Notes: a model not told the origin generated them from the sequence alone. A DNA stretch of 47,340 bases from Patescibacteria group bacterium (GCA_023485445.1 JAMCZT010000032.1:1-47340); one strand, 5' to 3'. Shown: positions 3,978 to 28,446, counted from the first letter of the stretch. Numbers and translations: made by a program.

Positions 3978-3985
3978 AAAACACC

Positions 3986-5440: not shown

Positions 5441-6372
5441 TCCAGTCTACCCGGGAAAAATCAACGATCGTCATAATTGATAACAAAGAAGTAAAGCTAA
5501 CAAACCTGGATAAGATTTTTTGGCAAAAAGAAGGGTACACTAAGAGAGATTTAATCGAATATTACCAAAGGATCTCCCCTTTCATCCTTCCCTACTTGGC
5601 CGATCGTCCCGAATCTTTGCATCGCTTCCCAAACGGGGTACGAGGAAAAGGTTTTTTCCAAAAAAATGTTGAATCTCCTCCGCCTTACGTCAAAACGGTA
5701 AAAATTCCCGCAGAAACGGAAAACCGGGTGATTAATTACATCGTTTGCCAGGATCTCGCAACCTTAGTTTACCTCGCAAATTTAGGCTGCATCGAACTTA
5801 ATCCTTGGCTTTCCCGAACCGTCAGCCAACATAGTCCAGATTACTGCGTCTTGGATCTTGATCCAGTCGAAATTGGTTTTGGGGCGGTAGTTCAGACTGC
5901 TTTGGTCATTCACCACCTATTAGAAAAGGCCAGTATTTCCCACTACGTCAAGACTTCTGGAGCGACCGGTTTACATATCTACATTCCTTTAAAAAGCGGC
6001 TACACCTATGAGCAATCCCGCCTTTTTGCCCAAACCATCGCTTCAATAGTCCACCAGAAAACCTCCTCTTTCACTTCATTAGAAAGGCTTCCAGAAAAAA
6101 GGGTGAGTAAAGTCTACCTGGATTATTTGCAAAATGTCTTGGGAAAAACCCTCTCAGCCCCTTACTGCCTTCGACCTAGAGACAGAGCGCCTGTCTCAAC
6201 GCCCCTACTTTGGGAAGAAATAAACGGAAAGTTAGATCCCCCTGATTTTAACATCAAGACCATTTTTAAAAGATTAGGAAAAATAGGCGACATTTGGAAA
6301 CCGCTGCGACAAGAAGGAGTCGACCTAAAGGTGGCACTAGACCGTCTGCAAAAAGTTTCCCAAAAATTTTGA
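5437..6372 (+). CDS. stand-alone LigD polymerase (AEP primase-like) domain
   Basis: LTNLDKIFW, RFPNG, FFQKN, DLDP, KTSGATGLH, YLDYLQN, VSTPLLWEE. GTG start overlaps the ligase stop. Confidence 0.93.
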   Translation: MIQSTREKSTIVIIDNKEVKLTNLDKIFWQKEGYTKRDLIEYYQRISPFILPYLADRPESLHRFPNGVRGKGFFQKNVESPPPYVKTVKIPAETENRVINYIVCQDLATLVYLANLGCIELNPWLSRTVSQHSPDYCVLDLDPVEIGFGAVVQTALVIHHLLEKASISHYVKTSGATGLHIYIPLKSGYTYEQSRLFAQTIASIVHQKTSSFTSLERLPEKRVSKVYLDYLQNVLGKTLSAPYCLRPRDRAPVSTPLLWEEINGKLDPPDFNIKTIFKRLGKIGDIWKPLRQEGVDLKVALDRLQKVSQKF

Positions 6373-9037: not shown

Positions 9038-10000
9038 GGAAGTTTCTCCGAACCGATCGGAGGAATTTAAGAGAACGCTCACTACCCGATGCTTATCTTT
9101 CGTTGCGGAAGCCACCAGGCATTGACCTGCTTCTTGGGTCCAACCGGTTTTTACTCCGTCTATCCAATCTTGCCCAAGCAGACTATTTGTGCTTTCTAAG
9201 TCGTGCCAATAAACCTTGTCCACACTGCTAATGTTAATCCGCTTGGTCTTAATAATCTTGTTAAAAAAAGGGTTTTTTAAAGCGTAAGCAGTCAAATAAG
9301 AAAAATCTCTTGCCGTAGTGAAATGGTTTTTCTCAGGCAAGCCAGAAGAATTTACAAAGTGAGTATTTTTCATATTCAATTCTTCGGCTTTTTTATTCAT
9401 AGAGTAAATAAATTGTTCATATCCACTTGGATAGCTTGCGGCTAAAACATAAGCGGCGTCATTACCAGATTTAACTAGCAAACCGTAGAGAAGGTTTTCG
9501 ACGCTTATCCTCTCACCCTCTACTAACCCCATTAGACTGCCTTCAGTCTGCAAGTTAGAAACCGTCAAGACATCAGTTAACTTGTACGCCTCTAAAGCTA
9601 CCACCGCCGTCATTATTTTTGTCGTCGAGGCTGGGGCTAAAGGAGTATCCAGATTTTTCTGGAAAAGCACTTTGGCCGAGTCAAGGTCAAGGACTAGGGC
9701 AGAAGTAGCGGTCAGCTCAGGTGGTGAACTTTTCACAGTCATGACTGGATAAACCGCGGGAGAAGGCACGGAAAAAGGAAGCGCCTTGACTAATGGTTCT
9801 TTAAGAATTAACTTTTCAGATTCGTAAGGGTTGTTGACAGGGTTCATCGAAAAGAAAATAAAAACAATTGCGGAGGTAAAAACGAACAAAACGGTTGTTT
9901 TTCTTTTACTGAATAGCTTACGAGAGAGGCGGTCTGCCCAACTTTTAAGGTAGGACGTCAAAGTTGAGAGGTATCCTTTAGCTTCATTTCTTTCCATCAT
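8999..10000 (-). CDS. D-alanyl-D-alanine carboxypeptidase (peptidase S11)
   Basis: All three PBP motifs are present: STTK (SxxK), SGN (SxN) and KTG. N-terminal TM anchor. Confidence 0.93.
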   Translation of the reverse strand: MMERNEAKGYLSTLTSYLKSWADRLSRKLFSKRKTTVLFVFTSAIVFIFFSMNPVNNPYESEKLILKEPLVKALPFSVPSPAVYPVMTVKSSPPELTATSALVLDLDSAKVLFQKNLDTPLAPASTTKIMTAVVALEAYKLTDVLTVSNLQTEGSLMGLVEGERISVENLLYGLLVKSGNDAAYVLAASYPSGYEQFIYSMNKKAEELNMKNTHFVNSSGLPEKNHFTTARDFSYLTAYALKNPFFNKIIKTKRINISSVDKVYWHDLESTNSLLGQDWIDGVKTGWTQEAGQCLVASATKDKHRVVSVLLNSSDRFGETSSLLNYIFSSYRW

Positions 10001-11280
10001 CTTTGAATTTCGCTAAGGAGATGTCAATGCGGGTAACGTCCCTGGGGAAAAGGGCAGCCTCGCGGATATTGTCGGCCCCGATTATTTTCGCTGTCAGCCT
10101 TTCCAACCCGATGGCTAATCCCCCTTCCGCCGGCATGCCGTATTTAAAGGCTTGGAGATAAAAACTAAAATTTTCCGGCTTTATGCTTCTTTTTTTCATG
10201 CTTTCCACTAATTGGTCATAATCGTTAATGCGTTGCCCGCCAGTGGTTATCTCAACTCCTCGGAAAAGCAAGTCAAAACTTTTTGTGTATCCTGGGTCGG
10301 ATTCGTCAGGCATAGTGTAAAGCGGCCTGTGCTCAACTGGCTGATGGGTCACGAAAACAAACTCGCTACCAGATTTAACTAGCAAACCGTAGAGAAGGTT
10401 TTCGACGCTTATCCTCTCACCCTCTACTAACCCCATTAGACTGCCTTCAGTCTGCAAGTTAGAAACCGTCAAGACATCAGTTAACTTGTACGCCTCTAAA
10501 GCTACCACCGCCGTCATTATTTTTGTCGTCGAGGCTGGGGCTAAAGGAGTATCCAGATTTTTCTGGAAAAGCACTTTGGCCGAGTCAAGGTCAAGGACTA
10601 GGGCAGAAGTAGCGGTCAGCTCAGGTGGTGAACTTTTCACAGTCATGACTGGATAAACCGCGGGAGAAGGCACGGAAAAAGGAAGCGCCTTGACTAATGG
10701 TTCTTTAAGAATTAACTTTTCAGATTCGTAAGGGTTGTTGACAGGGTTCATCGAAAAGAAAATAAAAACAATTGCGGAGGTAAAAACGAACAAAACGGTT
10801 GTTTTTCTTTTACTGAATAGCTTACGAGAGAGGCGGTCTGCCCAACTTTTAAGGTAGGACGTCAAAGTTGAGAGGTATCCTTTAGCTTCATTTCTTTCCA
10901 TCATCTTTGAATTTCGCTAAGGAGATGTCAATGCGGGTAACGTCCCTGGGGAAAAGGGCAGCCTCGCGGATATTGTCGGCCCCGATTATTTTCGCTGTCA
11001 GCCTTTCCAACCCGATGGCTAATCCCCCTTCCGCCGGCATGCCGTATTTAAAGGCTTGGAGATAAAAACTAAAATTTTCCGGCTTTATGCTTCTTTTTTT
11101 CATGCTTTCCACTAATTGGTCATAATCGTTAATGCGTTGCCCGCCAGTGGTTATCTCAACTCCTCGGAAAAGCAAGTCAAAACTTTTTGTGTATCCTGGG
11201 TCGGATTCGTCAGGCATAGTGTAAAGCGGCCTGTGCTCAACTGGCTGATGGGTCACGAAAACAAACTCGCTACCAGATTT
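9463..11280. repeat. 904-bp tandem duplication with 10-bp junction microhomology
   Basis: 9463-10366 is repeated at 10367-11270. TACCAGATTT occurs at 9463, 10367 and 11271. Confidence 0.95.
9984..10904 (-). CDS. chimeric ORF: carboxypeptidase N-terminal half fused to AspRS C-terminal part (product of the duplication)
   Basis: Identical to the carboxypeptidase up to LLVKSG, then identical to AspRS from SEFVFVTHQP to the stop. Confidence 0.6.
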   Translation of the reverse strand: MMERNEAKGYLSTLTSYLKSWADRLSRKLFSKRKTTVLFVFTSAIVFIFFSMNPVNNPYESEKLILKEPLVKALPFSVPSPAVYPVMTVKSSPPELTATSALVLDLDSAKVLFQKNLDTPLAPASTTKIMTAVVALEAYKLTDVLTVSNLQTEGSLMGLVEGERISVENLLYGLLVKSGSEFVFVTHQPVEHRPLYTMPDESDPGYTKSFDLLFRGVEITTGGQRINDYDQLVESMKKRSIKPENFSFYLQAFKYGMPAEGGLAIGLERLTAKIIGADNIREAALFPRDVTRIDISLAKFKDDGKK

Positions 11281-12246
11281 CTCCGCCACATAGGCGGAGA
11301 AATCCCGCTCATCCTGAGGGGAAAGATCTGGCTCGTGCAAGACTTTCCGGCCAAATTCCTTTTCGATTATCTTTTGGGCCTCCCTTAACTTAAAACTAGG
11401 AATTTCCTTCACTTCCGGCAGTTTAACTCCTAGAAAACCAACTTCCGTTTTTGCCGCTTGTGCCAAATATGGAAAAAGGTACTTCAAAAAATCAACTTCC
11501 AAAGCCATTACGTCCGTGTGGTCTTTTATAAAACCAAATTCGAAATCTAAACTGGTGTATTCGTTTAGGTGACGAGTCGTGTTGTGTTCTTCAGCGCGGT
11601 AAACCTCGCCAATAGTAAAAACTCTCTCGTAAACCCCGACCATAATTTGCTTATAAAATTGGGGGCTTTGGGCGAGAAACGCTTTACGGGAAAAATAGTC
11701 AACGCGAAAAACATTTGCCCCACCTTCCGTGGCTTCGGCGGTAATTTTTGGGACAAAAACTTCCGTAAATCCACGTTCGGCCAAAAAGTCACGAAAAGCA
11801 CGGACAATTTCTGCCTCGATCCTAAAAATGGCCCTGTTCTTAGCGTGGCGCAGAGTCAAGGGGCGATAGTCTAGAGCCGTGTCGAGGTTAATCTCCAGGT
11901 CTTTGGCACCAAAGTCAAAAGGCAAAGTTTCCGCGTCACTAATTAATTCAACTTTCTTGGCTTCGACTTCCACCGTTCCGGTAGGCAAATCTGGATTTTC
12001 CGATCCCTTCGGCCGAGCATTCACAGTACCAACCAAAGAAATCACATCTTGTAAACTCAAGGTTGAGGCAACCTCATGAGCTTCCGTCGAAACCTTCGGG
12101 TTCACCACTACTTGCACTGTCCCCGAGTAATCGCGAACATCAAGAAAAATCAATTTCCCATGATCCCGCCGGCTCTCGACCCAACCCTTAAGAAGCACCT
12201 CTTGTCCAACTTTTTCAATTGTCTCAATAATTAAGTTTCGTTCCAT
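10888..12246 (-). CDS. aspS: aspartate--tRNA ligase, short archaeal-type (probably non-discriminating)
   Basis: OB-fold RDHGKLIFLDVRD, LAQSPQFYKQ, YRAE (motif 2), GLERL (motif 3). No bacterial GAD insertion. Start reassigned to MERN. Confidence 0.93.
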   Translation of the reverse strand: MERNLIIETIEKVGQEVLLKGWVESRRDHGKLIFLDVRDYSGTVQVVVNPKVSTEAHEVASTLSLQDVISLVGTVNARPKGSENPDLPTGTVEVEAKKVELISDAETLPFDFGAKDLEINLDTALDYRPLTLRHAKNRAIFRIEAEIVRAFRDFLAERGFTEVFVPKITAEATEGGANVFRVDYFSRKAFLAQSPQFYKQIMVGVYERVFTIGEVYRAEEHNTTRHLNEYTSLDFEFGFIKDHTDVMALEVDFLKYLFPYLAQAAKTEVGFLGVKLPEVKEIPSFKLREAQKIIEKEFGRKVLHEPDLSPQDERDFSAYVAEKSGSEFVFVTHQPVEHRPLYTMPDESDPGYTKSFDLLFRGVEITTGGQRINDYDQLVESMKKRSIKPENFSFYLQAFKYGMPAEGGLAIGLERLTAKIIGADNIREAALFPRDVTRIDISLAKFKDDGKK

Positions 12247-12257
12247 ACTTACGGAAT

Positions 12258-12333
12258 GTATCAAGTATAAAGTATTTAGTATTAAGTATGAGAAAAAAAG
12301 TTTTATTCATTATACTTAATACTTGATACTTAA
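12258..12333. repeat. inverted arrays of a 7-bp unit (AGTATnA / TnATACT) in the aspS leader
   Basis: GTATCAAGTATAAAGTATTTAGTATTAAGTAT (12258-12289) faces ATACTTAATACTTGATACTTAA (12312-12333). Confidence 0.75.
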
Positions 12334-12343
12334 TTCTATTGTC

Positions 12344-12373
12344 ATTATCCGACAAATAGCCCCCAGGCGTCAA
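12344..12373 (-). promoter_or_regulatory. putative sigma70 promoter of aspS
   Basis: TTGACG-18 bp-GATAAT on the minus strand. Confidence 0.5.
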
Positions 12374-12433
12374 ATGGAAAATGTAAGGGTTACTCCGAGC
12401 GCCATTGCAAGCGATAGATGGAGGCAAGATGTG

Positions 12434-13546
12434 TTAGTTACTTTCTTGAAGAGATGTGATAAGGGAGCTAAAAATACTTTGATAGTTTTCGTTCGTTTTT
12501 TGTTTCAGAAATAAGCAATAGAGGTTATTTCCTTTTTCAATATAAACAACCTGCCAATACTTTCCGACATCACTCGGGTTACTTTTTTCATTCATCACCC
12601 CCGTTACTCTAGTTGCTGTTCCGAATGGAGTATTTAGTGTATCCTGAGTAGTGTTTGTCAAATATCCCTTATCATTTGTAATTATTTGGGTAGTTGTAAA
12701 CCCATTTGATTCCAAACGATGTACGTAAACGTTAATTTCACTCTCCCACTTATTAGGACTAAACCGAGCTTGTCCAAAATCAGCTCCAGTATCTGTTTCT
12801 GTCTTTATTTCCCAAGTTGAAGGGTATTTGATTGTGTACCCAATAGCAGGAGATAAATTTGTACTCTTATAAGTATATGTTTTCCAATCAGCAGTTGAAT
12901 CGGTTTGACTTTGGTCGGTGAATTTGAAGGTGGAGAGGATTTGGTTAAATATGGCCATATCACTATCTACAGTAGCATAGACGCTTAGAGTTTTTTTACC
13001 AACATTTAATGGTAGATCAAGCCTGATTGTACATTTAGGAGCACACTGATTAGTTCGGTAATAGTGCCCTTTAACACCACTTATAGTCATCTCTTTATAC
13101 TCTGTAATGAGATCAATCCCATTTTGGTTTTGATTACTAGTTGGAGATGTGCTGAAAGGTCGGGTTAAAACTTCAATACCCATAACTGGAACTTTTGATT
13201 GATCAATAGTGTTATTTTCAAAGCTACCTTCAAAGCTACCAATATTAGGAGGATAGAATTTCGTTGAGATAGTATTTTCAACATAAGTCCAATCCTTGGG
13301 ATATTTGACAGAGTAGCCATAAAGATTATTTGTATATGTTTTCCAATTTGCTGTAGCACTCGGAGAAGCTGAAGAAGTGCTGGTTTTGGAAGTGGGAACG
13401 CTAGTGTTATCGGTTGATTTGGGAGTGATTGAAGCTTGATAGTAGGTACCAGCAAAAAAGGCAATAAAAGGAAGGGTGATGAAAACAATCCCGGCGAGGA
13501 TTTTGGAAGTGTTAGTAACAGTTGTTAATTCTTTCGGCAGTTCCAT
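12434..13546 (-). CDS. membrane-anchored variable PsbP-like protein, paralog 1 (2 domains)
   Basis: MELPKELTTVT + TM + Ser/Thr linker + two WKTY..YP..W domains joined by QILSTFKFTD. TTGACA-17-GATAAT lies 7 nt before ATG 13546. Confidence 0.8.
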   Translation of the reverse strand: MELPKELTTVTNTSKILAGIVFITLPFIAFFAGTYYQASITPKSTDNTSVPTSKTSTSSASPSATANWKTYTNNLYGYSVKYPKDWTYVENTISTKFYPPNIGSFEGSFENNTIDQSKVPVMGIEVLTRPFSTSPTSNQNQNGIDLITEYKEMTISGVKGHYYRTNQCAPKCTIRLDLPLNVGKKTLSVYATVDSDMAIFNQILSTFKFTDQSQTDSTADWKTYTYKSTNLSPAIGYTIKYPSTWEIKTETDTGADFGQARFSPNKWESEINVYVHRLESNGFTTTQIITNDKGYLTNTTQDTLNTPFGTATRVTGVMNEKSNPSDVGKYWQVVYIEKGNNLYCLFLKQKTNENYQSIFSSLITSLQESN

Positions 13547-13587
13547 TGAAATCATTATCTTTCTCTAGGAATCGATTGTCAAGTAGG

Positions 13588-14657
13588 TGTCCTGGATCAA
13601 TACTTTTGAGACAACCCTCCTTTTAGGTAACACTGATAAGGTGATAAATATCTAAGCGATTGATGCGGTCTAACATTATTGTACCAGTTAACCCAAGTAT
13701 TTAGTTTTTCTTGAAACTCTTCCGGGTACAGTAGATAATCTTCCCGTTTCAAACAGAAACTCATCTTGAATTGTCCAATTAAACCTTTCGACATAACCGG
13801 TGGTTTTAGGATGTCTTGGGTAATTCCAGAGGGGAGTTAACTTAGCTTCTTTTACTGCCTCTCCAAAGAAAGATTCAAACTCACTCCCGTTATCAGTCTG
13901 AATAGTGTGAACTTTGTACCAGGCCGTCTGAATAATCTCTTCTAAGAATTTAGCCGCACGAAGGCTTTTTAAAGACGGGACGATCTTTAACCAAGCTTGT
14001 TTGGAGACAATGTCGACCGCGGTTAAGAAGTAGTAATACTTCTCCAGGTAGTAGAACTTAACTCCGTCTAGTTGAATATATCCGGATACCTGATCTTTTG
14101 AGTTAGGACACAATCTGACTCTTTGTTTGTTTCCGTTCTGTTTTACTCTTTTTCCAGTCGGCTTACCAGCGAAGAAGTAATGTTTTCGCTTAATTAACCT
14201 ACCAATAGAGGCAGACGAAGAGGAAGCATCAGTTAAGGACAACGTAGCGCATAAAGCTTTAACAAATCCTTCAATTTTCATCTTACCCATTCTGGGATGA
14301 TCTTCTCTGAGTTGTTTTACCAGCTTAACTACGGCTGGATCTTCTTCTGGAACTCTGAAGGTATGAGGTCTCGTACTTTTTGGAATCAAGGAATTTAACT
14401 TCTTCCCAGACTTCTCGAAAATCTTCTTCCAGCGATACAGAGTTGGCCGGGAAAGCTTCGGAAAGGCTAATTTTATGCCTCCCAACCACCCTCATAGAAG
14501 ATGTTTAGGATGTGGAGTCTAAATTGGGCTTTGTCTGAAGTATCAAACCTAAGACTACGATATACAGTATTAGAATACTTTCGTCTACGATAAGTTATCT
14601 TGTTAAAATCGGCTGGCAATTTACTTTAATTGTCTCAAATGTGTTTGATCTTTTTCA
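13588..14657 (-). mobile_element. decayed IS481/IS3-superfamily insertion sequence, about 1070 bp
   Basis: Imperfect terminal inverted repeats TG-N5-GATCAA..TTTGAGACAA at 13588-13614 and 14630-14657. Encloses a DDE transposase. No target duplication seen. Confidence 0.8.
13597..14619 (-). pseudogene. integrase-core (rve) transposase with two frameshifts
   Basis: TTG 14619 gives MPADFNK..EGGW, frameshift near 14485, then TLYRW / IQLD / IQTDNGSEF / YVERFNWTIQDEF, frameshift near 13750, then WYNNVRPHQSL. Confidence 0.85.
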
Positions 14658-14993
14658 GCATCTCTAGTCAACTCTTTCATCCGTTTCTTGAGTCGCGGTA
14701 AATCCTCTTTAATCGTTTTCCAGAGGATTTCCAAGTCCACCCCGAAATACTCATGAAGAACTTTATTTCTCATACTGATCATTTCTTTCCAAGGGGCATC
14801 CGGATGGCTTAATTTAAACTCGGACGATATTTCTCGCCGCCTCCCCGATTATTTCCAAATTTCGAATCACCGCGTCAATGGTCTTGGCATCAGTGTAGAA
14901 ATCGTCTTGGGAAAGATCTTTCGTAAATTGCTTAATTTTCTTCAGGGAAATTAAAATGTCGTCTAAGTAGAGGTCGGCCGTTCTTTTAGACAT
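14621..14993 (-). pseudogene. HepT/DUF86 HEPN ribonuclease toxin, frameshifted
   Basis: Not in the ORF track. MSKRTADLYLDDIL..IRNLEIIGEAARNI, frameshift near 14830, then PWKEMISMRNKVLHEYFGVDLEILW (RX4H). The last codons run into the IS end. Confidence 0.88.
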
Positions 14994-15291
14994 AAACCGT
15001 TTCTTTCAAAACGTTATCTTTGATCCTTTGTTTAATGGCTTTTTTGGTCACTAAATCAACCTTGCGGCCGAGAATTTTACTCAAGGACTCCTCCAGCTCC
15101 ACAAATTTAAAAAAACCAATCGGCTCGGAAAAATCCACTAAAATATCCACATCACTTCCAGCGACGTTTTCATTTCTGGCTACCGAACCAAAAACCCCGA
15201 TTTGCTTAACATGATAATCTTTTCGGAGCTGCTCTCTATGGCTATCAATTTTACTTTTGACTTGATCTAAAGTTCCGACTGCTTTTTTCAT
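14986..15291 (-). CDS. minimal nucleotidyltransferase (MNT/MntA-type antitoxin)
   Basis: GVFGSVARNE..SDVDILV and GRKVDLV. Overlaps the HepT start. Start reassigned to MKKAV. Confidence 0.92.
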   Translation of the reverse strand: MKKAVGTLDQVKSKIDSHREQLRKDYHVKQIGVFGSVARNENVAGSDVDILVDFSEPIGFFKFVELEESLSKILGRKVDLVTKKAIKQRIKDNVLKETVYV

Positions 15292-15378
15292 AGCCAAATG
15301 ATAACACAAAACAAACAAAAATTCATCAGGGAATCGTGGAGAAAAAAATTATTTAGTGAATTGGAAGGTGGAAAGGAT
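15282..15378 (-). repeat. duplicated module, copy 1: ILSTFxFT-stop + leaderless promoter + ATG AAA AAA
   Basis: Near-identical to 17432-17524. Contains extended -10 TGTTATCAT 6 nt before the ATG. Confidence 0.85.
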
Positions 15379-16464
15379 TTGATTAAATACTGTCTCACCC
15401 TCTCGGACTTTTGAACCATCAACAGGAGTATCAAGCGCTATGCTATATACTAACTCCTCATCTTTAGAAAAGAATGACACGCCATAAGTATTTTCTGCTC
15501 CTGCTCGTGGAAGAACTTTTACTGCTTGCTGACTACCAACATTAAGAGTGTCTCTATCATACGAAGATCCCCCAAGTTCTTTGAGGCTAGCATAGGGCTT
15601 CTTTGTTTGATCATTATAATTTTTTTGCTCTCTTATCGAAAGCTTGTATACACTTTGTTCATCTTGAAAAACTTCAGTGCCGTGAAAGTTGGAAGAATGC
15701 TCAACTTGTTTCCATGTAGAAGGCAGTTTTATCTGGTAACTTTCATACCCTAAAGATGAGTCTGAGGTAATCTTATACGTTTTCCAGTTAGCAGTTGAAT
15801 CAGTTTGACTTTGATCGGTGAATTTGAAGGTGGAGAGGATTTGGTCAAAAATGTCCTTTGAAGTTTTAGAGGAGTAAATAATTTCTATTTCGTAAGTCTT
15901 TGCGTTGTTTAAAACTTTGGCGATTGTTCCAGTAAACGCTGGATTCCCTTTCTCTTGGAAATCCCATTCGATACCCGATTTGCCGTCGACTGTAATGCTT
16001 TTTACAGATAGCACCTCTTTATCCGTTACAGTATCTGAACCCTTAATCACCTGACCTACGGATCGTGTAGGCAAAGTGGAAACAGAACTTGTGCTAATAA
16101 AGATTTTCGCCCCACTCGTTGCCTGTTCTTCTAATTTATTCTTATCGTCTTGCCTAAAATCAGCACTTTCAATACTCACTGACCCATTTAAATTGTCCGC
16201 TACACTCCAGCTGTTAGGGTATTTTAAAGTAAATCCCAGAGTAGAATTTGAATATGTCTTCCAATTCGCAGTTGCGCTCGTAGTCGCAGAAGAAGTGCTG
16301 GTTTTGGGGGTTGAAACAACGGTGCTATCGGTAGACTTAGTTGCAATAGAAGCTTGGTAGGTGGCACCAATAAAGAAAGCGGCGAATGGTAAACTCACGA
16401 AAACAATCGCGGCGAGGATTTTAGAGGTGGTAGTAACAGTCGTTAGCTCTTTTGGCAGTTCCAT
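15349..16464 (-). CDS. membrane-anchored variable PsbP-like protein, paralog 2 (2 domains)
   Basis: Same N-terminus. QILSTFKFTD linker. Ends QILSTFQFTK. Confidence 0.8.
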   Translation of the reverse strand: MELPKELTTVTTTSKILAAIVFVSLPFAAFFIGATYQASIATKSTDSTVVSTPKTSTSSATTSATANWKTYSNSTLGFTLKYPNSWSVADNLNGSVSIESADFRQDDKNKLEEQATSGAKIFISTSSVSTLPTRSVGQVIKGSDTVTDKEVLSVKSITVDGKSGIEWDFQEKGNPAFTGTIAKVLNNAKTYEIEIIYSSKTSKDIFDQILSTFKFTDQSQTDSTANWKTYKITSDSSLGYESYQIKLPSTWKQVEHSSNFHGTEVFQDEQSVYKLSIREQKNYNDQTKKPYASLKELGGSSYDRDTLNVGSQQAVKVLPRAGAENTYGVSFFSKDEELVYSIALDTPVDGSKVREGETVFNQILSTFQFTK

Positions 16465-16525
16465 TAAAATTATTAACTCACTTTTCTACATTTTCGTCAA
16501 GAAAATACCCAAATTATAGGGTATG

Positions 16526-16554
16526 TTGACAAATTACGCCTTTTAGAGTAGTAT
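16526..16554 (+). promoter_or_regulatory. near-consensus sigma70 promoter pointing antisense into the DUF3800 gene
   Basis: TTGACA (16526-16531), 17 bp, TAGTAT (16549-16554). Confidence 0.7.
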
Positions 16555-16559
16555 TAGAA

Positions 16560-17228
16560 TTAAGAAACTTGCTTCGGATGGGTGCTTGCACCGGTTCGGG
16601 CAAGTTTTTTATTTTGAAAAACTCTTCTTTTTACTTCCTTCCAGTTCAGTCTCTTTTCTCTAATTATCCTTTCCCGAATTATTTCATAAAATATAAAGTT
16701 CTTTTTTGTTTCTTTAGCCAGAACAGCTCCTGCGACCATATCGGCAACATTAATCAACCTGTTCTTCGCACTATCAACATGAGAGATAACAAGTGATTTG
16801 TGAAGAAGTTGTGGTAAAAAACGATTAAATTCTTCCGTTTCGGAAACTCTAGAAAAATGTCGATCTAGAATTATTTCGCAAGGGTCTGAATAAAAGCTAA
16901 AAACATCATTAAGGAGTAGCCAGCAAAGAAAGGCAAAATTTTCTGGAGTATCGGGAATCTTCTTCCCCGCTTTTTCAACGATTAAAACGAAAATATCAAG
17001 CCCTTCTTCCACCACTTTTTGTAGAAATAACCTTTTCGTCTTCTCGCCCGCGGAGTAAAATTTGATCTCTTTGCTAAGATCTTTTAGTTTGCCTTTCCTT
17101 CTTAGAAATTTGATTATCCCCTCAATCTTTTTCGCGTCTTCGGTTCCAGCCGCCGCGACAATAACCACTTCGTCCCTTGGGTCCGGTAAAGTTCCCGATT
17201 CGTCAATAAAAATACTAATTCTTTTCAT
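16560..17228 (-). CDS. DUF3800-family protein
   Basis: N-terminal IFIDESG, EIKF, ILD and C-terminal VDS..INVADMVAG. Confidence 0.8.
   Translation of the reverse strand: MKRISIFIDESGTLPDPRDEVVIVAAAGTEDAKKIEGIIKFLRRKGKLKDLSKEIKFYSAGEKTKRLFLQKVVEEGLDIFVLIVEKAGKKIPDTPENFAFLCWLLLNDVFSFYSDPCEIILDRHFSRVSETEEFNRFLPQLLHKSLVISHVDSAKNRLINVADMVAGAVLAKETKKNFIFYEIIRERIIREKRLNWKEVKRRVFQNKKLARTGASTHPKQVS
16561..16615 (+). ncRNA. putative ~50-nt hairpin small RNA antisense to the DUF3800 3' end
   Basis: Starts just after the promoter. Long stem with three G-U pairs, G(CUUG)C tetraloop, ends in a U-tract. Confidence 0.55.
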
Positions 17229-17243
17229 AAATTACCAAAGGAA

Positions 17244-17441
17244 TCAAGATTGAGGAAATTGAAAAGGTTGTAACTGAGTGCCCTCTTGGTAAAGTCCCAT
17301 GGCCTCTTGTAAATTTTTCAAAGCCTCTTCGTAGGTTTTACCAAAACTAGAAACACCCACGTTAAGACACTGAGCTATAAAATATTTGCCCTCTTTCCAA
17401 ACAACATTAGTAAAAACCTGATCTTCAGATACTTTTTTCAT
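17244..17441 (-). CDS. HicB-like antitoxin (short, no HicA neighbour)
   Basis: VVWKEGKYFIAQCLNVGVSSFGKTYEEALKNLQEAMGLY. Start reassigned to MKKVS. Confidence 0.8.
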   Translation of the reverse strand: MKKVSEDQVFTNVVWKEGKYFIAQCLNVGVSSFGKTYEEALKNLQEAMGLYQEGTQLQPFQFPQS

Positions 17442-17524
17442 AGCTAGATGATAACACAAAACAGACAAAAATTCATCAGGGATCGTAAGAGAAATTATTC
17501 GGTGAATTTGAAGGTGGGGAGGAT
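17432..17524 (-). repeat. duplicated module, copy 2, with an orphan ILPTFKFTE-stop remnant
   Basis: Near-identical to 15282-15378. The motif part (17495-17524) lies downstream of the stop at 17538. Confidence 0.85.
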
Positions 17525-17537
17525 GTTGCCCCTTACG

Positions 17538-19054
17538 TTATTTAACGCATTTACTAAAATCAAGGGAGTTATTTACCTTTATACTCTTTAACAAATTACT
17601 AAATTCTTGGCTATCCTTTCCTCGATTATTCCAACTGATTATTAAGGCATAATTGCCAATAGAAACTACGACTCCTGATCCAGAACCTGAGTCACCTAAT
17701 GGTCCCGCTTCTATAATTAAACTATTTTTATCCTGAATTAGAACTTCCTCAAAACGATAGTAGTAACCATCCTCTATCCCATAAAGCTGCCGTCGAGAGC
17801 CTCCATTGTAGGTGACTACTTTAGCCTTGAGAATCCCTCCTACATCATTACCAAAAACTATGGCACACTCTCCATTACTTAGCTGTTCGCCAAGTTTATC
17901 AGCATTATAGAACGCCTTAGGATGTTGGAACGAGTACCCGACAGACGAAACAAATGTCTCCCAACTATCAACTTTTCCATAATCTATTTTTCTAGCCGAG
18001 AAAGAAACAGATTCAAAGTCTAACTGGCTTCGGTCGGTGAATTTGAAGGTAGAAAGGATTCGGGTAAGCATTGTTTCGGCAGAATTAGCGTTTTTGGACA
18101 AAAATGCCATTTGAATGTTGTTAAAGTATGCAAGATCCTTAACATCAATAGGATTTATAATAACTAGTATCGATTCATTTTTATAGGTTAACTTCCGATA
18201 ACTGAAGTGCTTTCCTCCAAAATTTACGACTTTTTCCTCCTCCTTTTCCGGGGGATCTAAACCCCTACCCCATCTTCGATAGAAAGTTTATACCCTTCCA
18301 TAAAAGACAACCTGATCTGCACAGGGAATGAGTCGTCTAGGATCCCGTTAGAAGGATATTTAAACGAATAATTTTTTTGAGTGTTTGTATACGTTTTCCA
18401 GTTAGTGGTTGAGTTGGTTTGACTTTGGTAGGAAAAGTCGAAAGTAGAAAGAATCTGACCAACGGTTTTTTGATACCCTCGATTATTCCCATCACGGACA
18501 TTTTCAGTAATCCTTATAAACAGTTCTTCTGCATAAGGTAAAAATATGTACTTTGTGGTCACTTCGCTAGCAACAGTGTAAGTATAACCTGAATATCTTC
18601 CCACTTTTGTTTCAGTTAAAGGCTTGTCTAGACCAAAAATTTTACCTTGACCGTTACTAATTTCTTCTTCAATAAACTCTCTTAACGTCTTTGAATTTAA
18701 TTTTTCGATCAAAAAAGTTAGGCGATATCCAGGCTTCATCTCTACACCATCCGAAGAATTAGGTTCTGCGTAACTTACAATAACTTCCCCGTTTTCTAGC
18801 TCATGTAGATCAGCGTCTGAAGGGTAATTAAATGTGAATTTATTTCTTACTTTATATGTTTTCCAATTAACCGTAGCCGAAGAGGTACTGGTTTTGGGAG
18901 TCGAAACAACATTTGTATCGGTTGATTTAGGTGTCACTGAGGCTTGGTAAGTGGTGCCAGCAAAGACAGCGATAACGGGAAGTGTTACGAAAACAATCGC
19001 GGCAAGAATCTTTGAAGTTCTAGTAACAGTGATTAATTCTTTCGGCAGTGTCAT
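17538..19054 (-). pseudogene. variable PsbP-like protein, paralog 3 (3 domains), split by one frameshift
   Basis: ORFs 18257-19054 and 17538-18110 are joined by an open frame (GLDPPEKEEEK..NNIQMAF). Adding one G in the G4 run at 18262-18265 restores a 505-aa ORF. Confidence 0.8.
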
Positions 19055-19057
19055 AGC

Positions 19058-20164
19058 TCACTTCGAAACCTCAACTGAGGATAAAACTTTTTGCATATCC
19101 TCAGTACTTATGTATTGGGAACCAGTGACATAAAATGGCAAGCTATTTTGCACCCCCATATAGTAAGAAGAATTATTAAATGCAGACAGCCCTTGCGGCC
19201 AACCGGAAACCTTTAGGTAACTTTTACCATTGCTAAAACTAATCTCTTCGAATATTAAGTTGGAAAAGTCCCAGCTTGAATACATCGAACTTAAGTTCTT
19301 CTTTAACCATTCTCTTCTTGATTCTCCTTTATACGCATACTGAAAATCTCGATATAGGTAAATGGAAGCAACAGTTTTTGCGCTGGAGCCCTTACCATTC
19401 AGTAAATCAACGCCTTCTGATGAATTTGAGGCTAATTGTCTCTCCTTCACGGTAAACTCTTTCGGATACCTTAGCTTAAAATTAGTACCTTCAACTACTT
19501 TGTTGAAGGTACTCCAACTATTGGGAATGCTAACCTCGGTTTGATTCTGGTCGGTGAATTTGAAGGTGGAGAGGATCTGATTAAAAAATGTGAGGTCATC
19601 TCCACCCGGAGTATATAAGGAATAAACATCTTCTCCGTACTGAACAAAGGCAATCGCTGCCTTTTTCTCGCTAGGATAAATTGCTAGACCAGATATGATT
19701 GTAAAATTTAAACCACTAATCGATACAGCGTTATCTTCTTCTATTGTCATATAGATATTATTAGCATCTTTTTGTTTTTGGTTAGTAATTGTTGTATTGG
19801 GAACAAATGAAAGATTATAAGATAACGGGGTATCTATCGACCCTCCTGGATCTTCTGGAGCAAAGGCAATCGATTTAGACCCATTTTTTCCTTTCTGTTC
19901 CTGTTGAAAGTACCAAGAAGAAGGAGTTTTAAACAACAGTTTTTCAAGTGTGGTGGTTTTCCAATTCGCTGTCGCACTCGGAGAAGCTGAAGAAGTGCTG
20001 GTTTTGGAAGTGGAAACGCTAGTGTTATCGGTTGATTTGGGAGTGATTGAAGCTTGATAGTAGGTACCAGCAAAAAAGGCAATAAAAGGAAGGGTGATGA
20101 AAACAATCCCGGCGAGGATTTTGGAAGTGTTAGTAACGGTCGTTAGCTCTTTTGGCAATTTCAT
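19058..20164 (-). CDS. membrane-anchored variable PsbP-like protein, paralog 4
   Basis: MKLPKELTTVT N-terminus nearly identical to paralog 1. QILSTFKFTD linker. Confidence 0.8.
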   Translation of the reverse strand: MKLPKELTTVTNTSKILAGIVFITLPFIAFFAGTYYQASITPKSTDNTSVSTSKTSTSSASPSATANWKTTTLEKLLFKTPSSWYFQQEQKGKNGSKSIAFAPEDPGGSIDTPLSYNLSFVPNTTITNQKQKDANNIYMTIEEDNAVSISGLNFTIISGLAIYPSEKKAAIAFVQYGEDVYSLYTPGGDDLTFFNQILSTFKFTDQNQTEVSIPNSWSTFNKVVEGTNFKLRYPKEFTVKERQLASNSSEGVDLLNGKGSSAKTVASIYLYRDFQYAYKGESRREWLKKNLSSMYSSWDFSNLIFEEISFSNGKSYLKVSGWPQGLSAFNNSSYYMGVQNSLPFYVTGSQYISTEDMQKVLSSVEVSK

Positions 20165-20169
20165 ATTTT

Positions 20170-21303
20170 TTATTTTGTAACTTCAATTGTAGACAATACC
20201 CTTAATAAATCTTCGTTGCTTAGAGCCTTACCATTCGTTACAAAGAAAGATATCCCATTTTGTATACCTAAGTAAAAAGCCTTACCCTTAAACATTTCGT
20301 TTGGCCAGTTTGTTATTTTTAGATAACTTTTTCCATTATCGAAAACAATTTCATCAAATATTAAATTAGAAAGATCAACGTCGGTATAATACTTTCCTAA
20401 AACTTCTTTAAACCAAACTCGCCTAGAACCTGTATTATATTCAGTAAAAGTGCTGGCAAAAAATTTAGAATTTGAGTTTATATCAGCTGTGTCCAGGCTA
20501 CCCTCTTTACCCACATATATGTCCCCTGAGGATGGATCATTATCACTTATCCCATATCTCGAAGGGTACTTAAACTTGAAATACGCGTCGCCGAAGAACT
20601 TATTGTAAGTTTTCCAATCAGAAGGAATCGTCATGCTAATTTTGTTCTGGGAAGAAGTATTCTCATCGGTTTGGGTTTGATCAGTGAATTTGAAGGTGGA
20701 AAGGATTTGGTCAAGCTGTTGTTGGGTCACAACATCTTTAAGTCCAAAATATTCAATCGCGACAAGTTGGTCCTGAAAAGTAATAAAGTAGGAATCATAA
20801 AGTGAAGTATCAGAACCTTGCAACGATGCGTCAGTTTTGTATTGAGTCAAGTTTCCAGTGTACCCACCTACAGTAACATTCTTTTCTAAAACTCGCTTAG
20901 TCCCTTCAACACCATGCCCATATCTGAAATCGGCACTCTTTGTAGCAGCATAAACGAAAAGATTAGATTTTTTATCAGAAGAAGAGAATTCTAAGTTGAG
21001 CATGTTATTAGCACTGGATGACGAACCTAAAACTAAAGTAGTTGGATACTTAAATGACAGTCCGTAGGTTGAATTTGAGTAAGTTCTCCAGTCAGCCGTT
21101 GCTGAAGAGGTGCTAACAGTATTCGCGGAGGAAGTACTAGTCTTAGGAGTGGAAACGACGTTTGTATCCGTTGATTTGAGAGTCACTGAAGCTTGATAGT
21201 AATTACCAGCAAAAAAAGCGATAAAGGGAAGGCTCACGAAGACAATCGCCGCGAGGGTCTTAGAAGTAGCGGTAATGGTAGTTAATTCTTTAGGCAGTTC
21301 CAT
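20170..21303 (-). CDS. membrane-anchored variable PsbP-like protein, paralog 5
   Basis: Same N-terminus and linker. Second domain is homologous to that of paralog 4. TTGACA-18-TATATT lies 7 nt before the ATG. Confidence 0.8.
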   Translation of the reverse strand: MELPKELTTITATSKTLAAIVFVSLPFIAFFAGNYYQASVTLKSTDTNVVSTPKTSTSSANTVSTSSATADWRTYSNSTYGLSFKYPTTLVLGSSSSANNMLNLEFSSSDKKSNLFVYAATKSADFRYGHGVEGTKRVLEKNVTVGGYTGNLTQYKTDASLQGSDTSLYDSYFITFQDQLVAIEYFGLKDVVTQQQLDQILSTFKFTDQTQTDENTSSQNKISMTIPSDWKTYNKFFGDAYFKFKYPSRYGISDNDPSSGDIYVGKEGSLDTADINSNSKFFASTFTEYNTGSRRVWFKEVLGKYYTDVDLSNLIFDEIVFDNGKSYLKITNWPNEMFKGKAFYLGIQNGISFFVTNGKALSNEDLLRVLSTIEVTK

Positions 21304-21350
21304 TAAAATTAATATACCTCTAGTAAATATTGCCTGTCAAGCTTTCACTA

Positions 21351-21395
21351 CGTCATTCTGGCAATCAGTCAGAAGACTGAGCGTCCAGAATGACG
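21351..21395. repeat. REP-like palindrome, possibly a terminator after recJ
   Basis: CGTCATTCTGG..TCAGTC-AGAA-GACTGA..CCAGAATGACG: 11-bp outer stem and 6-bp inner stem. Confidence 0.65.
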
Positions 21396-21402
21396 GTAAA
21401 CG

Positions 21403-23055
21403 TTAGTTATGAGCCAGTTTAAGATCTTTGACCTTCAATTGCAGCTTCTTGTTTCCATTCCAATTATCCTCTTCCAACACAAAGGCCACGTCGACCTTCA
21501 TTCCCGGACGGAGCTTCAATTTCCACTCGCCTAGCCCGAAACCAATCGCTTCATATACCCCTTGTCTTTTCCAGGCCCCCATCACCTCGGCGCCGAGCCG
21601 CAGTTTCAAGTGCTTTCCATCACTGCCCACCGTTCGAAAATCTTTGACTTCGAAACCTCGACCCAGAAAAATCGGCTCGGGATTGCCCATCCCAAAAGGC
21701 TCAAATTGGCGTAGTTGGCGAATTGTTTCAAAACTAATCTGATCGGGAGTCACTTCCGCTTCCACTTTCAACAGCGGTGTCAGATCCTCGTCCTTCAATT
21801 TATCTTCCGCCCAAGACACCAATCTCTTTTCAAACTCCGCTAAATTTTTTGTTTCAAGGGTAAAACCGGCCGCCTGAGGATGACCACCGTGACTGACTAA
21901 AATATCGCTGCAACTACAAATCGCGTCAATGATGTTAAAACCACCGATCGATCGGGCGGAACCTTTGCTCAACTCCTCACCGCGACTGACGGCTAAAACT
22001 GGTCTGCCAAGCTCATCGGCCAGCCGCCCGGCCACCAAACCGATTACCCCCTGCTGCCAGCCTTCGTGAGACAAAACTAAGATTTTTTTCCCCTTTTCCG
22101 CGTCCGCATAAATCGTTCGGGCGTGATCTATAGTTTCCAAAGTCAATCGCTGTCGCTGCGCGTTAGTTTCCCCTAGTCTTTGGGCCAAATTCTCCGCTCG
22201 CTCTTTGCGAGTAGTTAAGAGCAGCCGTAAGGAATCCATGGCGTGCTCCATTCTCCCCATCGCATTAAGCCGAGGGGCCAGCATAAAACCAATTTCGTAT
22301 GTCCCCAGACTCCCTACTTTTACCCCAGCTTCTACCATCATCGCCTGCAGACCAAAACGGGTCGTTTGATTAAGTTGTTTCAAACCGTGCTTGACCAAAC
22401 TCCGATTTTTTCCTAAAAGAGGTACCATATCCGCGACTGTGCCTAAAGCCACCAAGTCTAACGCTTCAACCGGAATGATTTGGCCAAACTCTTTAAAAAT
22501 AGCCGTCGAGAGCTCGTAGGCGACACCTACACCAGCGAGATCAGTCGTGTGAAGGATCGCCAAAGCCTCTGGCAAATCCTCTTGCCGGTGGTGGTGATCC
22601 GTCACGATCACTTCGATCCCTAGAGAATTGGCCAGCGCTACTTCGGAGACCGCGTTGATGCCGCAGTCAACGGTGATAATCAACTTCACCCTCTTTTCAG
22701 CAATCTCCTTAATTGCTCCTTCCGAAAGGCCGTAGCCTTCTTTTTCCCGGTGGGGAATATAAGGAGTCACTTTGGCCCCAAATTTATTTAAGGTTTCCCA
22801 GAGCAGCGCCGTCGAAGTCACTCCGTCCACGTCAAAGTCGCCGTAAACCACGATTGGCTCTTTGCCTTCAACCGCTTGGCGAATCCTTTTGATCGCTTTT
22901 TTTAATTGGTCTTTCGAAATTAAGGGCTGTGGATCTAAGGAGGGATTGAAAAACTTATTCTTTTCTACTTCGTCTGTAATCTGGCGATTGTACAGAAGCT
23001 GCTCAATTAGGTCCTCTTTTACCCTCGGCGCAACCACCCAACGTTTTTCTTTCAT
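21403..23055 (-). CDS. recJ: single-stranded-DNA exonuclease RecJ
   Basis: YGDFDVDG, TVDCG, TDHH, GTVAD, GSARS, GGH, EPFGMGNPEP. Confidence 0.97.
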   Translation of the reverse strand: MKEKRWVVAPRVKEDLIEQLLYNRQITDEVEKNKFFNPSLDPQPLISKDQLKKAIKRIRQAVEGKEPIVVYGDFDVDGVTSTALLWETLNKFGAKVTPYIPHREKEGYGLSEGAIKEIAEKRVKLIITVDCGINAVSEVALANSLGIEVIVTDHHHRQEDLPEALAILHTTDLAGVGVAYELSTAIFKEFGQIIPVEALDLVALGTVADMVPLLGKNRSLVKHGLKQLNQTTRFGLQAMMVEAGVKVGSLGTYEIGFMLAPRLNAMGRMEHAMDSLRLLLTTRKERAENLAQRLGETNAQRQRLTLETIDHARTIYADAEKGKKILVLSHEGWQQGVIGLVAGRLADELGRPVLAVSRGEELSKGSARSIGGFNIIDAICSCSDILVSHGGHPQAAGFTLETKNLAEFEKRLVSWAEDKLKDEDLTPLLKVEAEVTPDQISFETIRQLRQFEPFGMGNPEPIFLGRGFEVKDFRTVGSDGKHLKLRLGAEVMGAWKRQGVYEAIGFGLGEWKLKLRPGMKVDVAFVLEEDNWNGNKKLQLKVKDLKLAHN

Positions 23056-23064
23056 GTCAACTTT

Positions 23065-24009
23065 TCACTTTGCAATTTTTAGTTCTTTCCGATCCTGCCA
23101 CTCCTGCCAAAGAACTAACAAAGGCGAGGCGTTAAAGATTGAGGAATATGTACCAGAAAGAATTCCCACCAATAACGCCACTACGAACCAACGGATCGTT
23201 GTTCCCCCAAAAAGGATCAAAGCCACCAAAACAAAAACTACCGTCAGGGAGGTATTTAGCGACCGGCCGATGGTCTGGAGGATGGAGTGGTTAACAGTTT
23301 CGGCAAAGGTCGAGTAAACCCGCCTTTTGAGGTTTTCCCTTATCCGGTCAAAAACAACGATCGTGTCATGAACGGAAAACCCGATGACGGTCAGCAGAGC
23401 GGTTACAAATAAAGAATCCACTTCCACCTTATAGAAATGACCAAGCAAGGAAAAAACCCCCACCACGACTAGAACGTCATGAATTAACGCCAGAATGGCG
23501 CAAATACCAAAACGCCAACTGGAAGCTGGCTTTGGCACCTCACGAAAGGCAAAGGCAATATAAATAACGATCATGATCGAAGCAAAGACGATAGATAAGA
23601 TGGCGTTGCGAAGCAGTTCACCTCCGATGGTCGGGCCAACCGTTTCCAGTCGCAGCTGTTCGACCTTGCCAAACTTTTCTTCTAAGGACTTCTTAAGTTT
23701 ATCAGATTGAGCCGTTTCCAATGGGCGGGTGCGCAAAGTATAGACCTGATCCCCTGAGCGTTGAATAATAGAGACTTCCAGGCCATCTTTTTTAACCGCG
23801 TCCCGGATCTGTTGGTTTTCTTTCGCTGTCATATCTGAACTGATGTTCACTCCAGAGGAGGCTTTTTCTAGTTTCAACTCCAGCAAAGTTCCCCCGGTGA
23901 AATCTATCCCCGCGTTAAGTCCCCAGGACGCTAGGGAAAAAATCCCCGGTATAATCAAAATAGCGGACAGAAAAAAATAAATCCATTTCTTGCCAACAAC
24001 ATCTAGCAT
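23065..24009 (-). CDS. secF: protein translocase subunit SecF
   Basis: GIDFTGGT, VGPTIG, DTIVVFDRIRE, GTYSSIF. Confidence 0.97.
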   Translation of the reverse strand: MLDVVGKKWIYFFLSAILIIPGIFSLASWGLNAGIDFTGGTLLELKLEKASSGVNISSDMTAKENQQIRDAVKKDGLEVSIIQRSGDQVYTLRTRPLETAQSDKLKKSLEEKFGKVEQLRLETVGPTIGGELLRNAILSIVFASIMIVIYIAFAFREVPKPASSWRFGICAILALIHDVLVVVGVFSLLGHFYKVEVDSLFVTALLTVIGFSVHDTIVVFDRIRENLKRRVYSTFAETVNHSILQTIGRSLNTSLTVVFVLVALILFGGTTIRWFVVALLVGILSGTYSSIFNASPLLVLWQEWQDRKELKIAK

Positions 24010-27738: not shown

Positions 27739-28446
27739 TTACTCGCTAAAAGTTACCGTTTGAAGAACTTGATTTGCTTTCTTTACGTTATTTGCCATAT
27801 CAGAAGAAGAAATCTCATCAATAGACACTTCATATACAGTATTTTTTACAGGAATATAATATACAGCGAAAGGCGTCTCTCCTTGTCCGGTTACCTTTAA
27901 AGCTGGTAAACCATTAATAGTTGTTGTGCCTGCAGGAGTACCTACAGATGACGCTTTCAAATTCTTATTCCACCAATCCTCAATAGGAGTTTTTCCGTCA
28001 TACATATAGGTAGCTATTTCCAAACGAACGCTATGATCTACACTTCGAGGATATTCACTTAATAACTTAATTTTCTTGTATTGAGTATCTTCAAACACAC
28101 TCCATTCGGATGGATATTTTAAAGTAACTCCATAAGCAAGATTCGAATATATTTTCCAATTAGTAGTTTCATCAAAAGCAGTCGCTGGAGATCTTGCAGG
28201 GGTACCTGGAACTTCTTCACTACTTTTAGTTGGTGCTGTGTTTTGAGCTACAGTAGAAGGCAACGTTTGTTCCGACTTATTGTTTTTGAGAGTTCCAAAA
28301 TAATATGCCCCAGTCCCTATAATTAAGGTAAGAAGTATTACACCAAGTATTGGAAGAAGATAACCTTTTTGTTTTGGAGAAACAATTTGATTGTTTGGAT
28401 TATCTACCCTGGGATTATTCTCTAATGTGTTATTCTCTGGTTTCAT
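27739..28446 (-). CDS. single-domain PsbP-like membrane-anchored protein
   Basis: TM segment, linker, NWKIYSNLAYGVTLKYPSEW and NQVLQTVTF. The N-terminus differs from the array paralogs. Confidence 0.75.
   Translation of the reverse strand: MKPENNTLENNPRVDNPNNQIVSPKQKGYLLPILGVILLTLIIGTGAYYFGTLKNNKSEQTLPSTVAQNTAPTKSSEEVPGTPARSPATAFDETTNWKIYSNLAYGVTLKYPSEWSVFEDTQYKKIKLLSEYPRSVDHSVRLEIATYMYDGKTPIEDWWNKNLKASSVGTPAGTTTINGLPALKVTGQGETPFAVYYIPVKNTVYEVSIDEISSSDMANNVKKANQVLQTVTFSE

Follow-up and report, generated by a model that had tools for sequence, protein, structure and literature searches.

The window analysed here is the whole of a 47,340-nucleotide (nt) contig, C10, from a Patescibacteria group bacterium, the genome of which comprises 899,269 b in 43 contigs with 42% G+C. 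Between recJ and aspS it carries a 9.1-kb tandem array of five co-oriented minus-strand paralogues, one of them decayed, which encode anchored proteins with PsbP-like domains. A 14-nt word recurs at the ends of these domains, and the original prediction took it for a recombination handle in a cassette array of swapped extracellular domains. We find that loci of this sort, coding for variable surface proteins, are fairly common, and that the array is no specialised machine for shuffling domains. The genes of the array, the flanks of the island and the recurrent word are as follows (S/T, serine/threonine; ORF, open reading frame).

10888..12264, minus strand: aspS, island flank (Pfam)
12434..13546, minus strand: gene A, with N-terminal anchor, S/T stalk and two PsbP-like domains; alternative ORF start at 13555; PF18933 at 44.3 bits
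15349..16464, minus strand: gene B, with anchor, stalk and two PsbP-like domains; PF18933 at 31.3 bits and PF01789 at 26.3 bits, both above the cut-off
17495..19054, minus strand: gene D/C, a former three-domain member (from frame translations and DNA)
19058..20164, minus strand: gene E, two-domain; begins 5 nt beyond the stop of F
20170..21303, minus strand: gene F, with two domains; PF18933 at 21.5 bits, below the cut-off
21403..23055, minus strand: recJ, island flank (Pfam)
12918..12931, plus strand: the 14-mer GTGAATTTGAAGGT, found by exact search; further exact copies at 15818, 17502, 18037, 19554 and 20684, and a copy with one mismatch at 15356

Anchored PsbP-fold proteins of the array

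Five co-oriented paralogues with a common N-terminus are present, as originally described, but the ORFs at 18257-19054 and 17538-18110 belong to one broken gene, D/C, together with the tail ILPTFKFTE* that ends at 17495. At least two frameshifts separate these pieces, and the frame of the C piece (17538-18110) can be read upstream without a stop to about 18269. F, E and D are spaced 3-5 nt apart, and F-E-D/C is likely an operon with F as its first gene. Each protein starts with MxLPKELTTVT, a short N-terminus that would lie in the cytoplasm, crosses the membrane with one hydrophobic helix at residues 16-34 and continues through an S/T-rich stretch into the domains. Each domain opens with (A)NWKTY and closes with F(N/D)QILSTFKFT; the second domain of gene B also closes with the motif, in the form ILSTFQFTK*.

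The curated whole-protein cut-off of PF18933 (PsbP_2, ‘PsbP-like protein’) is 27 bits, and three of the six ORFs exceed it: A, B and D, the last with 39.8 bits. E and the C piece have no PF18933 match; E and the tail of D/C are too diverged for Pfam. Where they can be aligned, the domains are 20-37% identical, for example 28% for the first domains of A and B (E 3e-10) and 37% for the second domains of E and F (E 2e-35), while the first domains of A and E show no significant similarity (E 0.25). The identities of 20-37% make the domains distant homologues of one fold, and the claim that the domains flanking the word are unrelated is therefore not upheld.

Gene B, the only member modelled, gave an AlphaFold2 model (alignment of 38 sequences) with a mean predicted local distance difference test (pLDDT) of 79 and two alpha/beta domains mostly above 85. 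In this model the motif occupies the C-terminal helix (residues 200-212 and 353-366) and a short strand, the last elements of each domain. Foldseek returned 34 Protein Data Bank (PDB) matches for the model at E<=0.001, the best of them the cyanobacterial PsbP 2xb3 (E 9e-7, TM by target 0.61), with plant PsbP, Mog1p, Apa and MTC28 of M. tuberculosis and Tsi3 among the others; the ESM Atlas neighbours are likewise PsbP-like clusters. A sequence-profile search of the PDB matched only 2xb3, at E 0.55, and none of eight proteins scored above any NCBIfam cut-off. Photosystem II PsbP itself (the NCBIfam equivalog NF040946, PSII_PsbP) was rejected as an assignment, with 12-18 bits against a cut-off of 60.

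In fold (alpha/beta, closed by a C-terminal helix) B agrees with the PsbP/Mog1 group (2xb3, 2lnj, plant PsbP, Mog1p, Apa, MTC28, Tsi3), and like that group it probably consists of extracytoplasmic, non-enzymatic modules. Unlike PsbP, the array has no photosystem context, carries two or three domains on an anchor and S/T stalk, and consists of tandem paralogues. Judging from fold and topology, we suggest that the PsbP-fold domains are most likely extracellular, non-enzymatic binding modules exposed on the cell surface.

The genes belong to a very large family of the class Microgenomatia, within the Candidate Phyla Radiation (CPR). Homologues of B number 1319 proteins at E<=0.001, and the few with a name are assigned to Levybacteria, Gottesmanbacteria, Roizmanbacteria, Microgenomates and Paceibacterota. 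Of 400 genomes of the class, 52 have the N-terminal anchor module, a count that includes one genome flagged as unpublished (G086), on which the conclusion does not rest. Similar arrays occur in G211 (at least 12 genes), G132 and G056; there, too, DNA similarity is limited to short islands (28-300 nt) that coincide with the N-terminal block and with the two boundary motifs. Among the papers listed for the ILSTFKF motif, for PsbP-like proteins in the CPR/Patescibacteria and for PF18933, none deals with this family, judging by title.

The motif that closes each domain

The search confirmed all six exact sites of the 14-mer and its one-mismatch copy at 15356. These seven matches at up to one mismatch compare with 0.04 expected in the window, and none of 100 shuffles reached seven. 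When the motif was counted over the whole genome, as had been proposed with the prediction, a single further match at up to one mismatch was found (C41:31961). It does not lie in a family member, and it was ruled out as a family site and is regarded as a chance match.

On the minus strand the 14-mer reads ACC TTC AAA TTC AC and codes for TFKFT within F(N/D)QILSTFKFT. The identical boundary codons that were claimed hold for six of the eight motif copies; gene D has ACT TTC GAC TTT TC instead, and the terminal copy of B has CAA for AAA. The back-translated ILSTFKFT pattern matched 85 times, in 57 out of 400 further genomes of the class, against no match for the reversed control, and the exact 14-mer was found four times in 60 relatives, in each case coding for ILSTFKFT. 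The 14-mer is the coding DNA of a structural motif that closes the PsbP fold, and it is class-wide, not specific to this array. What had been read as a linker is the last helix and strand of the domain, and the locus thus shows that a ‘conserved DNA handle’ is foremost a structural motif of a fold.

The synonymous conservation of TFKFT within this genome is not exceptional. Its mean pairwise codon identity is 0.79, compared with 0.80 for the best five-codon run of the N-terminal block. We also note a second codon preference of this site-specific kind, at the other end of the domain: for Thr in NWKTY, 19 of the 21 copies from the stored loci, most of which come from one array, have ACG or ACA, against a background of 44%.

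Conversion patches, junctions and the island setting

Two stretches of DNA are shared between genes of the array.

13338..13520, no strand assigned: A-E patch, shared with 19956-20138, 179/183 identical with a 123-nt perfect run
12874..12956, no strand assigned: A-B linker patch, matching 15774-15856; 90% identity across 83 nt, including a perfect run of 31 nt

The A-E patch has visible edges: in the 26 nt towards the start codon only 20 are identical, and on the other side the similarity ends at the NWKT codons. The core of the A-B patch, 12891-12945 against 15791-15845, agrees at 53 of 55 positions, as had been reported, and the N-termini of A and B are 75% identical. The other N-terminal pairs are 69-77% identical in DNA (74-79% in protein), compared with 67-74% (65-69%) for the orthologue in G001, a relative of the same family. 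These pairs are about as diverged from one another as from the orthologue; therefore, the paralogues are old and the A-E patch is recent, a pattern typical of gene conversion. Concerted evolution acting strongly on every N-terminus was ruled out, since the identity within the genome is barely above that to the G001 orthologue and only the A-E pair is recent.

The domains behave as modules. The type of the second domain of B (50-68% identity) is found as the only, the first or the last domain of other proteins, and so is the type of its first domain in other homologues. The second-domain type is patchy, occurring in 7 of the 400 class genomes and in none of 20 of the same order. Its copies in two other families are nevertheless 58-59% identical to it, whereas RecJ identity to those families is 45-49%. 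One protein that appeared, from single-linkage clustering, to carry the two domain types of B in reversed order was not confirmed by direct BLAST. Taken together, the two conversion patches and the shifting domain positions show that recombination in the conserved blocks happens. The proposed swapping of domains at these blocks is partly supported to this extent, although the motif codons are no more conserved within this genome than the best N-terminal run.

Contigs from public sequencing runs bear on the junctions. Three runs, X4, X6 and X7, come from two studies other than that of the probable source run, X1. Contigs with zero differences to the window bridge the linker of A (X4, 12743-13519), the linker of F (X6, 20439-20982) and the junction between the N-terminus and first domain of E (X7, 19781-20137), and a further such contig of X4 covers the D/C junction (18041-18741). 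In X4, X6 and X7 the depth is even over the array and its flanks, at 2-8. No alternative junctions at the 14-mer were found in the contigs of the four runs, from which rare variants are dropped. In X1 a contig of depth 3.4 joins 20626 to 13328 with 26 other letters between them, and individual contigs diverge from the window where the conserved blocks lie, for which other members of the family are the simplest explanation. Over 10500-23500 the X1 depth changes in steps, with 88 on the recJ side, 250-399 over the array and 137-205 on the aspS side. This suggests a mixture of strains in the source sample that share the array.

The comparison of the aspS-recJ interval that had been proposed places the array in one lineage. 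recJ and aspS are neighbours, 285-584 nt apart, in four of five relatives (G001, of the same family, and G003, G006 and G009, of the same order); in the fifth, G002, they lie on separate contigs. The promoter region of aspS is conserved, with 39 nt that are 87% alike to the intergenic DNA of G001. From this adjacency and the conserved promoter region it follows that the 9.1-kb array is an insertion or a local expansion in this lineage. In G001 five genes with the N-terminal module are spread over four other contigs. One of them is the orthologue of D (G001:C12 4071-5210; first domain 45% identical), in which an in-frame TGA takes exactly the place of the NWKTY Trp codon and a TAG follows; it is probably a pseudogene.

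Between and before the surface-protein genes lie the following elements (IS, insertion sequence; HTH, helix-turn-helix).

13582-13554, minus strand: promoter-like site before gene A, 11/12 match
13597..14619, minus strand: remnant of an IS transposase (rve integrase core and HTH), split over several frames (Pfam rve, rve_3, HTH_32)
14814-14993 and 14621-14782, minus strand: HepT-like HEPN RNase, split in two (PF01934 profile positions 1-45 and 83-119 on two separate ORFs)
14986-15318, minus strand: MntA-like nucleotidyltransferase (PF01909, 68 bits)
16560-17228, minus strand: inserted DUF3800 gene (Pfam)
17244-17468, minus strand: inserted DUF7387 gene (Pfam)
21340-21311, minus strand: promoter-like site before gene F, 11/12 match

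The overall count of promoter-like sites is not above that in shuffles. Besides the IS remnant and the DUF3800 gene, the island includes a toxin-antitoxin pair. Pieces 92-93% alike to the transposase remnant are found at the start of contig C26. A 97-nt block at 15282..15378 is shared with 17432-17524 at 84.5% identity, and it spans the 3′ end of a surface gene with its terminal motif, the spacer and the first codons of the MntA-like nucleotidyltransferase or of the DUF7387 gene. These two genes both begin with ..LCYHLAMKK, as if unrelated small genes had been set behind one common 3′ end and promoter.

Elsewhere on the contig, a single-domain PsbP_2-like gene lies at 27739-28446, 6 kb away beyond secDF; its Pfam score is weak (23.1 bits, below the cut-off) and its N-terminus resembles that of B. 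A cluster of Ku, a LigD-type ligase with phosphoesterase domain and a LigD primase-polymerase at 3192-6372 makes up a complete non-homologous end-joining set in a CPR-type genome of 0.9 Mb, and a bacterial aeRF1-like gene is present at 1848-2612. A perfect tandem direct repeat of 914 nt (9463-10376 = 10367-11280, 100% identity) yields a chimeric ORF, 9984-10904, in which the start of a D-Ala-D-Ala carboxypeptidase is joined to the last ~135 residues of AspS. Because one X1 contig has the same length of 914 nt, the repeat may be an assembly artefact rather than a real duplication.

Origin of the array and of its conserved DNA

We consider it likely that the locus is a lineage-specific recJ-aspS island, in which a tandem array of surface-protein genes is patched by ordinary RecA-type recombination between paralogues and not by programmed switching. 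The cassette array proposed earlier does not agree with the organisation of the genes. All five have a start codon, an anchor and a stalk and are thus complete genes, which leaves no silent cassettes. The seven motif copies share one orientation, and crossing-over between such direct repeats would therefore delete DNA, not switch domains. The contigs of the two other studies keep the same junctions. A tyrosine or serine recombinase was sought with Pfam in the array and in 34 further ORFs of the contig, and only the broken rve transposase came up. The statement that the array has no local recombinase thus overlooked this frameshifted gene (13597-14485), although its enzyme is not of the shufflon type.

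In this proposed scheme the identity of the 14-mer DNA would have three causes: a very strong constraint on the peptide across the class, a tendency across the whole class to use the same C-ending codons, which are otherwise rare, and short-patch gene conversion between paralogues within the array. The conserved blocks, one N-terminal and one at the domain boundary, would be the only two places where conversion could start or end. In the longer run of evolution, these homologous blocks would let domains be gained, lost and re-ordered.

A number of observations weigh against such an ordinary origin, and most of them concern the codons. The codon identity at the motif goes beyond the codon bias of the genome: bias does not explain it, because TTC, ACC, CTC and TCC are rare here (of the Phe codons in the genome 25% are TTC, of the Thr codons 28% are ACC and of the Leu codons 9% are CTC). 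The explanation by optimal codons was ruled out, since the ribosomal-protein operon uses the motif codons even less (TTC 12%, CTC 4%), and the array outside the motif has TTC 28%, CTC 9%, TCC 12%, ACC 22% and ATC 23%. At identical residues the pairwise codon identity is 0.69 in the linker versus 0.51 in the N-terminal block with the A-E pair excluded, where saturation would give 0.41 and 0.35, respectively; per column the synonymous identity is 0.64 versus 0.51 (one-sided Mann-Whitney p 0.0125). Hand counts over the 85 class-wide motif matches gave, for Leu, CTC 57, CTT 26, CTA 1 and TTG 1; for Ser, TCC 60, TCT 13, TCG 9 and TCA 3; and for Ile, ATC 47, ATT 34 and ATA 4. A script count on the stored loci points in the same direction, with CTC in 14 of 21 motif copies against a background of 11%, 12 of the 21 copies being from one array. 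Third-position C is highest in the linkers (0.49), lower in the N-terminal block (0.27) and lowest in the domains (0.15); the genome-wide value is 0.21. The linker of a G001 gene, from another genus, matches that of gene A at 29 of 30 nt, and so conversion within the array cannot alone explain the whole pattern. The codon pattern possibly reflects GC-biased conversion at a recurrent recombination site, or selection on the codons themselves. To these points are added the limits of the contigs, which lose rare variants, so that junctions of low frequency could escape and uncovered parts are uninformative, and the uneven depth of the X1 contigs (88 to 399), several of which leave the window at conserved blocks.

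The original prediction is that the DNA of the boundary motif is held identical as a selected recombination handle and that ectodomains are swapped between copies or through natural transformation. The recurrence of the rare motif codons class-wide and across genera is in line with it, and the raised G+C and C at third positions of the conserved blocks fit GC-biased gene conversion, a process that occurs in bacteria, at a recombination hot spot. The conversion patches stop at the block edges, the domain positions differ among homologues, the second-domain type of B is patchy and yet more alike across families than RecJ, and recA, recX, recJ and comM lie on the same contig. However, the codon conservation of TFKFT is no higher than that of the N-terminal run, other arrays keep the peptide with mixed codons (as in the 12 copies of G211), and the exact ACC TTC AAA TTC word recurs in only 12 of the 85 class matches (hand count). 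The direct repeats, the complete genes and the identical junctions in the two other studies also speak against a handle, and so does the decay of one gene and of the inserted toxin-antitoxin and IS genes. Efficient RecA recombination usually needs roughly 25 nt of identity, and the 14-nt identity is shorter than this. We thus regard a selected handle as unlikely. The broader form of this idea, to which we likewise give only a small chance, is that the domain-closing block is a recurrent recombination site, the codons being the footprint of GC-biased conversion or of selection for DNA identity, and that CPR arrays would exchange PsbP-fold modules within genomes and, via natural transformation, between lineages.

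The synonymous conservation might also come from selection on translation or mRNA without any part of recombination, for instance if a cluster of rare codons slowed the ribosome at the completion of each domain. A run of rare C-ending codons indeed ends every domain, in this genome and class-wide, and the terminal motif copies use the same codons though no domain follows. We find this quite improbable nevertheless, as RNAalifold on six aligned 89-nt linkers predicted no consensus structure (0 pairs), many genomes use TTT AAA TTT at the same place, and C-ending codons, which pair fully with G34 tRNAs, are usually not slow; the A-E and A-B patches, which reach beyond the motif, would be left unexplained. 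As for the possibility that the mosaic is an artefact of metagenome assembly, in which strains or paralogues were joined at repeated blocks, the X1 contigs break exactly at such blocks (12916-12944, 13385/13490, 15816-15844 and 20003/20108) and vary in depth as given above, and the 914-nt tandem repeat elsewhere on the contig equals one X1 contig in length. Against this, the junctions of the A linker, the F linker, the N-terminus and first domain of E, and D/C are all spanned without a difference by contigs of X4, X6 and X7, at even depth, and an artefact is very hard to believe.

The preferred reading, an island patched by ordinary recombination between paralogues, can be set beside known systems. 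As in antigenic variation by gene conversion (pilE/pilS of Neisseria, vlsE of Borrelia, MgPa of Mycoplasma genitalium), conserved blocks bracket variable segments and the patches are short and non-reciprocal. Unlike in those systems, there is no single expression site with promoterless truncated donors, all copies being complete, and the contigs of the four runs, which drop rare variants, hold no alternative junctions. With shufflons and multiple-inversion systems (Rci; vsa/HvsR of Mycoplasma) the array shares a short DNA word that recurs at the borders of variable segments; however, its repeats are direct and not inverted, and no tyrosine or serine recombinase lies in or adjoins it. A feature of the array is that the conserved word lies between two domains of one gene. 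The array resembles bacterial paralogues under concerted evolution (see PMC13061034), such as PE/PPE of M. tuberculosis and bab of Helicobacter, in that homologous recombination patches conserved segments and makes mosaics. It differs from them in the protein family, in the position of the patch at a domain boundary and in its CPR host.

As an island whose insertion site is defined, the locus is a clean example, and it dates two conversion patches relative to an older divergence of paralogues. Few surface proteins of the ultra-small CPR bacteria are as expanded and as variable as the anchored PsbP-fold proteins. If the class-wide preference for rare codons at the motif marks recombination, it would explain how bacteria with very small genomes diversify their surfaces.

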